Positions 62,141 through 62,533 of a stretch of DNA of 64,000 nt are shown in pieces; positions within the stretch are counted from its first letter, which is position 1, and the number at the start of each line of letters is the position of its first letter. The stretch is from Alphaproteobacteria bacterium. GTDB taxonomy: Bacteria; Pseudomonadota; Alphaproteobacteria; UBA7879; UBA5542. Location of the stretch: the NCBI GenBank assembly GCA_046317875.1, contig JBKCVN010000026.1, forward strand, positions 12,617 through 76,616. Reading direction: 5' to 3'. The translations under genes and the position numbers were made by a program. The notes under the pieces are model-generated. The model saw only the letters and a list, made by a program, of their open reading frames with translations, did not search any database and was not told the origin of the DNA.

Positions 62141-62304
62141 TTATTTAGGAAATTTTTGAGCATATCGAGTAAGGGTAGGTAATTCTTGTCCTATGGCTTG
62201 GGTTATTCGATCCATAAGGAGGGGGGAAAACATATGATAAACATTCAAAGTCCCATGGATGGTTTTTTTGGGTGCCTCAATACTCACATTCTGGGTATGG
62301 GAGA
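62141..62304 (-). pseudogene. Remnant C-terminal fragment of a protease paralog fused to the duplicated priA 3' fragment
   Basis: The minus-strand translation LAGLVSHTQNVSIEAPKKTIHGTLNVYHMFSPLLMDRITQAIGQE aligns with the paralog 1 and 2 C-termini (LVGLVSQSLEV...HTLNIFQLLTPELLEKI). Confidence 0.45.
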
Positions 62305-62533
62305 CTAGGCCCGCCAAATGGCAGCCTGTATTCCCGTGATAAAAGAGATTGAAGTGTTGGGGCCGGTGCCCGCCGCCATGAGCCGATTGAAGGGCCAATA
62401 TCGTTGGCGGTTTTTGGTAAAAAGTGAGCGTGGAATTAAGATACAATCCTTCCTAAAGAAATGGGTGAAAATCAGCCAGATTCCCACCCACATTCGACTG
62501 CAGATTGATATGGATCCTTATAGTTTTTATTAG
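62305..62533 (+). repeat. Duplicated copy of the last ~225 bp of priA (near-identical to 59367-59589)
   Basis: Translation MAACIPVIKEIEVLGPVPAAMSRLKGQYRWRFLVKSERGIKIQSFLKKWV(KIS)QIPTHIRLQIDMDPY(S)FY matches the PriA C-terminus with 4 substitutions. Confidence 0.85.

Follow-up and report, generated by a model that had tools for sequence, protein, structure and literature searches.

Displacement of the 3′ end of a gene, with the former end left behind as an orphan piece, has been described at Rhs, contact-dependent inhibition (CDI) and type VI secretion system (T6SS) effector-immunity loci, where homology-facilitated illegitimate recombination (HFIR) was proposed as the mechanism (Kirchberger et al. 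2017, PMC5361080). In that paper, Jackson et al. 2009 and Koskiniemi et al. 2014 are cited for displacement and orphan arrays. HFIR in transformable bacteria and in conjugation of Escherichia coli is treated in PMC3240628. The present work concerns positions 62141-62533 of a stretch of 64,000 nucleotides, which as a whole is called the window. It belongs to an NCBI metagenome-assembled genome labelled "Alphaproteobacteria bacterium", with locus tags of the form ACK5PQ_049xx. At this site the C-terminal remnant of a secreted-protease gene abuts an orphan 3′ end of priA, the gene of the replication-restart helicase. The segment is a real, non-functional recombination scar and a further instance of an already known kind of event. 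With a probability of about one half, the left joint of the scar arose by 3′-end displacement through one-sided homologous plus illegitimate recombination and was followed by allele exchange and decay.

HFIR was reportedly also observed by de Vries and Wackernagel in 2002, by Prudhomme and colleagues in 2002, and by Meier and Wackernagel in 2003. Two other systems offer useful parallels. In E. coli, e14 and phage 21 integrate in the 3′ end of icd and supply a substitute 3′ end, and the original end is left as a fragment. In Staphylococcus aureus, the spl operon is a tandem array of secreted serine-protease paralogs.

The order at the end of the window is priA (+), P1 (−), P2 (−), an AT-rich spacer, Pfrag (−), priA′ (+), P3 (−), and a plus-strand gene referred to as the 387-aa gene. 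W denotes the window genome, W3 its proximal priA tail, and W′ its distal tail, which is the same as priA′; L002, L003, and L006 are genomes of relatives. The features on which the argument depends are the following.

57559-59589, plus strand: priA, intact, 676 aa, which acts as the conserved anchor here; all Pfam PriA domains are found, and amino acid identity is 95% to L006 and 85% to L003.
59364-59589, plus strand: W3, the functional priA 3′ end and proximal 226-nt repeat, 94.2% identical to 62308-62533.
59586-60767, minus strand: P1, the sole intact protease paralog, 393 aa, with an N-terminal leader and conserved His/Asp/Ser (list of open reading frames (ORFs); weak Trypsin_2 match; orthologues in L002 and L003).
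60820-62053, minus strand: P2, a frameshifted pseudogene with a 16-bp tandem duplication at 61852-61883.
62054-62140, no strand: AT-rich spacer upstream of P2, 10% G+C by composition.
62141-62307, minus strand: Pfrag, the final ~55 codons and stop of an otherwise lost fourth protease paralog (profile hidden Markov model, tblastn, local nucleotide alignment).
62305-62311, no strand: left joint at 62307/62308, from the interior of Pfrag to priA position −226 (abrupt onset of identity; codon context; spanned by Logan contig L004).
62308-62533, plus strand: priA′ (W′), the orphan 226-nt priA 3′ end, with a PriA_C match and 98.2% identity to the functional priA end of L006.
62141-62446, minus strand: chimeric ORF of 101 codons, TTG start, 101 aa (ORF list).
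62537-63406, minus strand: P3-deltaN, with ~84 N-terminal codons (leader and first strands) gone, by alignment with the full-length 383-aa P3 of L006.
63402-63403, no strand: right joint, where the L006-like block stops abruptly; the present P3 ATG lies on it (L006 alignment; within Logan contig L008).

The likeness to the Rhs, CDI, and T6SS loci is considerable. The upstream gene, priA, is intact with an apparently new 3′ end, and the old end persists in the same orientation as an orphan that is still joined to its cargo, namely P3, the gene that follows priA in L006. The joint at the far end of the putative incoming segment is non-homologous, with an abrupt onset of priA identity at 62308 and protease-derived sequence on its left side. 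Strains differ in array content, and the direct repeats permit later homologous deletion of the intervening genes. A repeat of 226 nt is within the size range able to act as a recombination anchor. A one-sided homologous anchor combined with an illegitimate join at the far end, as in HFIR, is also the geometry needed for the junction of Pfrag and priA′. Unlike in the known loci, however, the anchor is a housekeeping gene and not a toxin gene, and the cargo consists of convergent secreted proteases instead of 3′ toxin tips with immunity genes. The orphans here are decaying, nothing suggests selection to keep them, and it is we who infer the mechanism.

The locus also resembles icd with e14 in that an essential gene is intact by virtue of an apparently imported, slightly divergent 3′ end, the displaced native end forms a direct repeat beyond the insert, and one edge of the repeats is free of differences, over 54 nt in the present case. 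Unlike e14, the 2.9-kb insert has no integrase or other mobility gene, as 59590-62307 holds only P1, P2, and Pfrag; moreover, it ends inside a truncated gene, which is unexpected for site-specific integration. A xerC-like gene does lie nearby, but relatives have it conserved whether or not they carry proteases. With the spl operon the locus shares several divergent trypsin-fold paralogs with leaders, adjacent to one another in a strain-variable locus, whereas the family found here falls below the Trypsin_2 threshold, is very rare, and has most of its copies broken.

The joint between a protease relic and an orphan priA end

The original prediction had placed at this site a chimeric junction between a protease C-terminal piece and a priA 3′ fragment. 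A genuine non-homologous joint of this type is present, and its edge at 62308 is sharp. On the right side, priA′ (62308-62533) and the 3′ end of priA (59364-59589) align along 226 nt with 94.2% identity (E = 2.6e-98) and 13 differences, none of which falls in the first 54 nt. The identity has a sudden onset at 62308 and ends precisely at the priA stop codon at 62533. The plus-strand ORF of priA′ matches positions 36-95 of the 95 positions of Pfam PriA_C (PF18074) with E = 2.3e-16 and 60.8 bits (cut-off 26.9). Structurally, priA′ is a gene fragment made of the last 75 priA codons only, and it is preceded by a stop TAG (62306-62308) and by protease-derived sequence. It is no complete PriA, as the 3′BD, helicase lobes, Cys-rich region, and C-terminal domain are not all there. 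In the NCBI annotation, 62318-62533 appears as ACK5PQ_04950, a hypothetical protein of 71 aa.

On the left side, Pfrag (62141-62307) gives no blastn or within-window tblastn match to P1-P3. The homology to the protease C-terminus that had been claimed for this part is confirmed at the level of the family. A family profile built without Pfrag matches the ORF at profile positions 324-371 (E = 4.9e-7, 25.7 bits), and among 1,468 six-frame ORFs of the window the chimeric ORF is the only match besides the paralogs. P1 orthologues of relatives match Pfrag by tblastn with E = 2e-5 and 2.4e-4. The nucleotide alignment of 62141-62307 with the protease 3′ ends, which had been proposed as a check, gives above-chance similarity, faint and in register, to P2 (p = 0.0005, local alignment, 2,000 shuffles) and to P1 (p = 0.014, local alignment, shuffles), and none to P3. 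The outcome that would have refuted the prediction, a lack of nucleotide similarity above chance, is thus not what was observed. Pfrag is 22-34% identical to every member of the protease family, with none closer. Because of this uniform distance, it is what remains of a fourth paralog, and the earlier view of the piece as a copy of a resident one (P1, P2, or P3) falls. All three catalytic residues are missing from it, and its start lies past the Ser motif. A single duplication making both sides of the joint is excluded, as Pfrag and P3 share no nucleotide similarity while identity between the priA tails is 94%.

The codons of the paralogs at the joint are xAT TTG xxx GGA CTx, those of antisense priA CAT TTG GCG GGC C, and a few bases of microhomology (GGCC, perhaps ATTTG) are plausible. 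The position 62307/62308 is a true illegitimate (non-homologous) recombination joint. No third priA remnant was detected in the 62054-62140 spacer, where local alignment against the priA 3′ end is not significant (p = 0.38). A 14-nt exact match to the priA tail within it (TATAGTTTTTATTA, 62097-62110), considered as a third remnant left of Pfrag, is at chance level by the same shuffles. Likewise, local alignments with shuffles show no priA remnant in the P1-P2 spacer or in 63403-63556. As a separate observation, the spacer between Pfrag and P2 contains at 62068-62109 an AT-rich imperfect palindrome of 42 nt, 76% self-complementary, within the 10% G+C stretch.

Relatives and the origin of the joint

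The relatives found by priA search form a graded series, and all share a xerC-like gene, TAL, priA, then the 387-aa gene, pepA, and holC. Four genomes (the P0007 genome, L009, L010, and L011), with priA 69-82% identical, have no protease between priA and the 387-aa gene. One protease is present in L002/L007, as a P1 orthologue only, and in L006, as a full-length P3 only, followed by a 389-aa gene and pepA. L003 has two, in the order P1 orthologue, ~100-nt priA′ fragment, P3 orthologue. The window has three and a fragment (P1, broken P2, Pfrag, priA′, truncated P3). By its priA, 95% identical at the amino acid level, L006 is the sister of the window genome. In the relative L002/L007 (Logan SRR33465394), the contigs end exactly at the priA/P1 boundary with only one protease seen, and these breaks hint at a second arrangement or a strain variant in that sample.

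The comparison with L006 bears directly on the claim that the priA fragment is a recent duplicate of the window's own priA end, and contradicts it. L006 11803-12897 aligns with window 62308-63402 as a block of 1,095 nt with 97.5% identity, unbroken from priA into P3. At 11 of the 13 sites that separate the two priA tails of the window, the functional priA of L006 has the state of the distal copy. Identity to L006 is 98.2% for W′, 94.2% for W3, and 94.6% for upstream priA, and W3 and W′ are 94.2% identical to each other. Synonymous divergence (dS) from L006 is 0.039 for P3 and 0.066 for priA′. In the ten flanking housekeeping genes it ranges from 0.07 to 0.39 and is at least 0.16 in nine (priA 0.18, TAL 0.30, xerC 0.16, pepA 0.23, holC 0.39, pyrG 0.37, kdsA 0.29, glyS 0.37, glyQ 0.19), with the short secG alone low at 0.07. 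Since the block has dS of 0.04-0.07 against flanks mostly at or above 0.16, the 1.1-kb segment of priA′ and P3 was shared between the W and L006 lineages much more recently than the surrounding chromosome. The distal piece is thus, on these identities, an L006-type priA tail still joined to P3. The window equals the L006 arrangement plus a 2,944-bp segment (new priA 3′ end, P1, P2, and Pfrag) between two 226-bp repeats. As to the direction of the W/L006 transfer, outgroup polarisation of the 13 sites assigns five derived states to either branch, and neither direction is favoured by the R-region identities to L003, L007, and L011.

The unit of priA 3′ end and protease had also been proposed as a recurring module, and this holds here, as the priA′ fragment of L003 precedes its P3 orthologue. 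This fragment is 92% identical to the priA end of L003 itself over a 173-nt tract that runs into the protease C-terminus, with no signal for a further leftward extension (p = 0.9). The two proteases of L003 share in their 5′ regions a 232-nt patch (8492-8719 vs 9907-10137) with 73% identity. The joint coordinates differ from those of the window, and the L003 case is a second, independent joint of the same kind.

From the joints, the repeat, and the states in relatives we infer the following order of events, with a donor and an HFIR mechanism. Incoming DNA from a relative would have brought a priA 3′ end with P1, P2, and the first-met C-terminal 55 codons of another protease, and would have paired homologously within priA, the anchor. 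Its far end, 55 codons inside a protease gene, would have joined illegitimately to the resident priA at position −226. Such a join would leave priA intact and push the old priA end and P3 downstream; Pfrag would then mark where the incoming DNA had been cut or, alternatively, would be left over from a paralog that the join destroyed. Afterwards, the orphan module may have been exchanged by recombination with the L006 lineage, in either direction, the 5′ end of P3 would have been lost at the second sharp joint (63402/63403), and P2 would have been frameshifted. RecA-mediated deletion across the 226-bp homology would regenerate the exact L006 layout, and L006 may represent the undisturbed layout or, equally, one restored by recombination between the repeats.

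Several points weigh against this history. A displaced resident module would be expected to show dS of at least 0.16 against L006, and the observed value is 0.04-0.07; because the block is this similar, an extra exchange between the W and L006 lineages is needed. No donor genome with priA-P1-P2 and a fourth protease was found in the scans. A donor search over one genome per species with priA gave only a distant Cytophagaceae match, and two scans of metagenomes, one with the alignment of the protease family and one with that of the priA tail, yielded nothing confirmed. No step in W-L006 identity along priA marks a homologous crossover, and W3 shows no greater identity to L003 or L007 than W′ does. 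There is no evidence of natural transformability in these organisms. No full-length parent of Pfrag was found either, by which the microhomology at the left joint could be confirmed. The window and L003 joints are not one shared ancestral event because their priA′ fragments measure 226 nt and ~100 nt, respectively. Finally, all genomes compared are metagenome assemblies.

An origin in situ, the view taken in the original prediction, is possible, though considerably less probable than displacement. It supposes that priA 3′ end and protease were duplicated in this lineage, that the array grew, and that an internal deletion fused the stump of the fourth paralog to priA′; L006 would have lost its proximal genes and taken priA′ and P3 of this lineage by recombination via the priA end and the protease leader. 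Indeed, the L006 layout is the exact product of recombination between the two repeats, and the conserved patches at the cassette ends (226-nt priA ends; 5′ leader with 88% identity in P1/P2 and 73% in L003) would permit swaps and gene conversion. Most changes on the branch that W′ and L006 have in common are non-synonymous (ETA to KIS), as expected of an unconstrained fragment, but this cluster falls in a PriA region that is variable among relatives too. Moreover, the W3-W′ distance (5.8%, dS 0.19) would have to match the W-L006 orthologous distance by chance, and no priA remnants lie beside P2 or Pfrag. Pfrag resembles no resident paralog at the level seen in the priA repeat, so the joint is not the original duplication joint.

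Marginally less likely again is direct import, a single event in which two illegitimate joins would have placed an L006-like fragment of ~1.1 kb (priA −226 to P3 codon ~85) in a fourth protease gene already resident there. The fragment would have inserted into that gene or replaced most of it, with no earlier priA′ at this place. A single event would cover both sharp boundaries, 62307/8 and 63402/3, which exactly bracket the low-divergence DNA (97.5% identity against 92-94% in the flanks), but these limits are also the limits of what can be aligned, as Pfrag has no counterpart in L006 and the 5′ end of P3 has none in the window. The equality of the W3-W′ distance and the W-L006 orthologous distance fits direct import as well, and so does the absence of pseudogene-type decay in priA′, none of whose four differences from the L006 copy is a replacement unique to priA′. 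The order shared with L003 (P1 proximal, priA′-P3 distal) would, however, be a coincidence. It also counts against this origin that two illegitimate joins together occur less often, by orders of magnitude, than recombination anchored by homology. Even anchored recombination is already rare (PMC5361080).

An assembly artefact, in which a contig chimera of two co-occurring strains (priA-P1-P2-... and priA-P3) formed via the shared priA end, is very improbable. The sequence does come from a metagenome bin, and the 54-nt identical stretch cannot be phased by short k-mers. Three Logan contigs (run SRR31514666) cover the region at 100% identity, and their breaks lie only inside the repeat. The junction of Pfrag and priA′ is, however, outside the shared sequence, and the separately assembled contig L004 crosses it with 30 nt of priA′; the right joint is within contig L008. 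Logan contigs phase 9 of the 13 variant sites between the priA tails to their exits, and the window path is the sole linear path through all nodes of the assembly graph. Because independent contigs tile the region, one of them across the joint, a chimera is unlikely.

The minus-strand ORF 62446..62141 that drew attention to the site exists as described, with 101 aa and a TTG start. It does begin as antisense priA, although the figures given earlier for that part (residues 1-42, with a switch at about 62305) need a slight correction: residues 1-46 are antisense priA′, the switch is at 62307/62308, and the remaining ~55 codons match the protease C-terminus. The equivalent antisense frame is open in genuine priA too (ORF 59329-59502), so the priA′ half of the ORF is a property of the priA sequence. 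The TTG is 15 nt downstream of a copy of a terminator-like hairpin (described below) and 5 nt past the end of its U-rich tail, with no promoter-like site between them. The ORF has no leader and no catalytic triad, and its exact product was not found in the protein collection. The joint produced this open frame by accident, and it is not a gene. Least credible of all is a functional new gene made by fusion, either this ORF or the 71-aa one: the 101-codon frame is still open, the 55 Pfrag codons are stop-free in AT-rich DNA (chance ~0.02 in random sequence by our base-composition estimate), and the annotated 71-aa ORF has GGGAG 14 nt ahead of its ATG, but against this stand the equally open frame in real priA, the position of the TTG directly after the terminator-like site, the lack of a leader and of any triad residue in Pfrag, and the absence of such a product from every relative.

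The protease array, its hairpin and the meaning of the scar

P1-P3 are about 30% identical to one another. In a six-sequence family alignment, the catalytic H78, D176, and S321 are invariant, together with G318, G319, G322, and P324. The His/Asp/Ser triad occurs in that order, as in trypsin-like serine proteases (PA clan, S1-type), and the Ser lies in the motif GG[MT]SG[CG]P, of the GxSGxP form, which in distant members reads GGDSGGP. Pfam Trypsin_2 matches P1 alone with 17.7 bits, below the cut-off of 27.6, and Pfam matched no family on P2, P3, Pfrag, or the N-terminal piece of P2. Against PDB sequences the match is marginal (best E = 0.0067, in the Ser-motif region of a clip-domain protease). 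P1 has four relatives only in 5.8 billion clustered proteins, and the family has 19 representatives at E ≤ 1e-3 among 1.84 billion; the P1 orthologues of L002 and L003 are 60-62% identical to it.

P1 alone is intact, P2 is frameshifted, the fourth paralog is a stump, and P3 is N-truncated. In P2, a perfect 16-bp tandem duplication (GGGGTCAGTCACATAA twice, 61852-61883) shifts the frame, and removal of one copy yields a 405-aa ORF with a leader. P2 therefore seems to have been inactivated very recently, unless the duplication is a sequencing or strain variant. P3-deltaN is 92% identical in amino acids and 97.5% in nucleotides to the full-length P3 of L006, with dS 0.039, dN 0.030, and dN/dS ~0.8; the right joint cuts it near codon 85, counted in the L006 orthologue, with loss of the leader and of the N-terminal strands. 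The broken protease copies look like recent accidents. The joint had been thought to document array growth by the copying of its own units; displacement and erosion fit this state of the paralogs better, and the joint records turnover and erosion more than expansion. Of the suggestion that a unit was "copied or deleted", the half that concerns deletion and illegitimate joining fares better, and the copying half does not stand.

The 5′ ends of P1 and P2 (leader and upstream bases; 60706-60774 and 61992-62060) share a patch of 69-74 nt with 88% nucleotide identity, which suggests gene conversion or a conserved recombination anchor. Judged from such alignments, the cassettes have conserved ends and hypervariable bodies. 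Set beside silent-cassette variation of the pilE/pilS or msp2/p44 type, the array has one intact and three broken copies with conserved patches at 5′ and 3′ ends, and no mosaic tract was detected within P1. priA and P1 are convergent, with stop codons overlapping at 59586-59589 (TTAG) and zero intergenic space; the P3 stop is 3 nt beyond the priA′ stop, the same as in L006. The C-terminal tail of P1 (59592-59640) is G+C-rich and Ala/Pro-rich (ARPEPAAATAAEAKP), and its length varies by genome. A tail of this type is common to the P1 and P3 orthologues of L002/L003 and is missing from the P3 of the window and of L006.

A terminator-like hairpin lies antisense within the priA tail, and its two copies in the window are as follows.

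59517-59547, minus strand: terminator-like hairpin, 13 bp followed by a U-rich tail, antisense within priA codons (KKWV...PTH); terminator scan, dG −21.5 kcal/mol, z −3.5.
62461-62491, minus strand: copy of the hairpin in priA′; terminator scan, dG −20 kcal/mol, z −4.2.

The hairpins lie 39 nt past the stop of P1 and 46 nt past that of P3. Their features match those of an intrinsic (Rho-independent) terminator, namely a stable G+C-rich stem-loop and a U-rich tract just past a stop codon. All six copies from protease-bearing genomes have the hairpin, with dG of −20 to −24.5 kcal/mol and z of −2.9 to −4.4 against shuffles. In the alignment 97% of cells are paired, two compensatory pairs occur among relatives, and the stem is stabilised by G·U pairs, which form on the minus strand only. 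Of the protease-less genomes, L009 and L010 do not have it (z about 0). As a strict rule, however, its restriction to loci with a protease gene fails, since the protease-less L011 has a weaker one (dG −13.4 kcal/mol, z −3.2). Because of this weaker version in L011 and its absence in L009 and L010, the link between hairpin and protease is suggestive only. The hairpin may serve as the terminator of the proteases and may hence be a reason for the persistence of a priA tail beside P3. An Rfam search of 57000-64000 gave no match at E ≤ 0.1.

On the far side the array is bounded by one further gene.

63557-64000, plus strand: 5′ part of the 387-aa gene, hypervariable, ~44-51% identical in amino acids to the versions of relatives.

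Against L006 its dS is saturated, and 92% nucleotide identity resumes from about 64376, including the adjacent pepA. The gene continues in contig L008 to about the window equivalent of 64375. Its allele classes do not follow the priA tree, as L006 and L003 are 79% identical and L002 and L003 46%.

Taken alone, the finding is a pseudogene-level scar in one metagenome-assembled genome. In its context it is a dated record, resolved to the base pair, of the turnover of a hypervariable secreted-protease locus in an uncultured alphaproteobacterial clade, in which two lineages carry independent orphan priA ends and a 1.1-kb block moved between lineages far later than their genomes diverged. Neither the annotated 71-aa hypothetical protein nor the chimeric ORF on the opposite strand should count as a gene. 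An essential gene can outlast repeated recombination at its 3′ end because incoming DNA supplies a replacement end. More speculatively, and with rather low probability, the priA 3′ end and its convergent protease may form a mobile cassette devoid of mobility genes, whose conserved ends act as portable homology. These ends would be the priA tail with its antisense terminator and the leader/5′ region; lineages may thereby swap, stack, and delete protease alleles, and truncated copies may persist as a store of sequence from which gene conversion could alter the single copy that is expressed. If true, this would extend the orphan logic of Rhs and T6SS loci to a housekeeping anchor and a non-toxin cargo.

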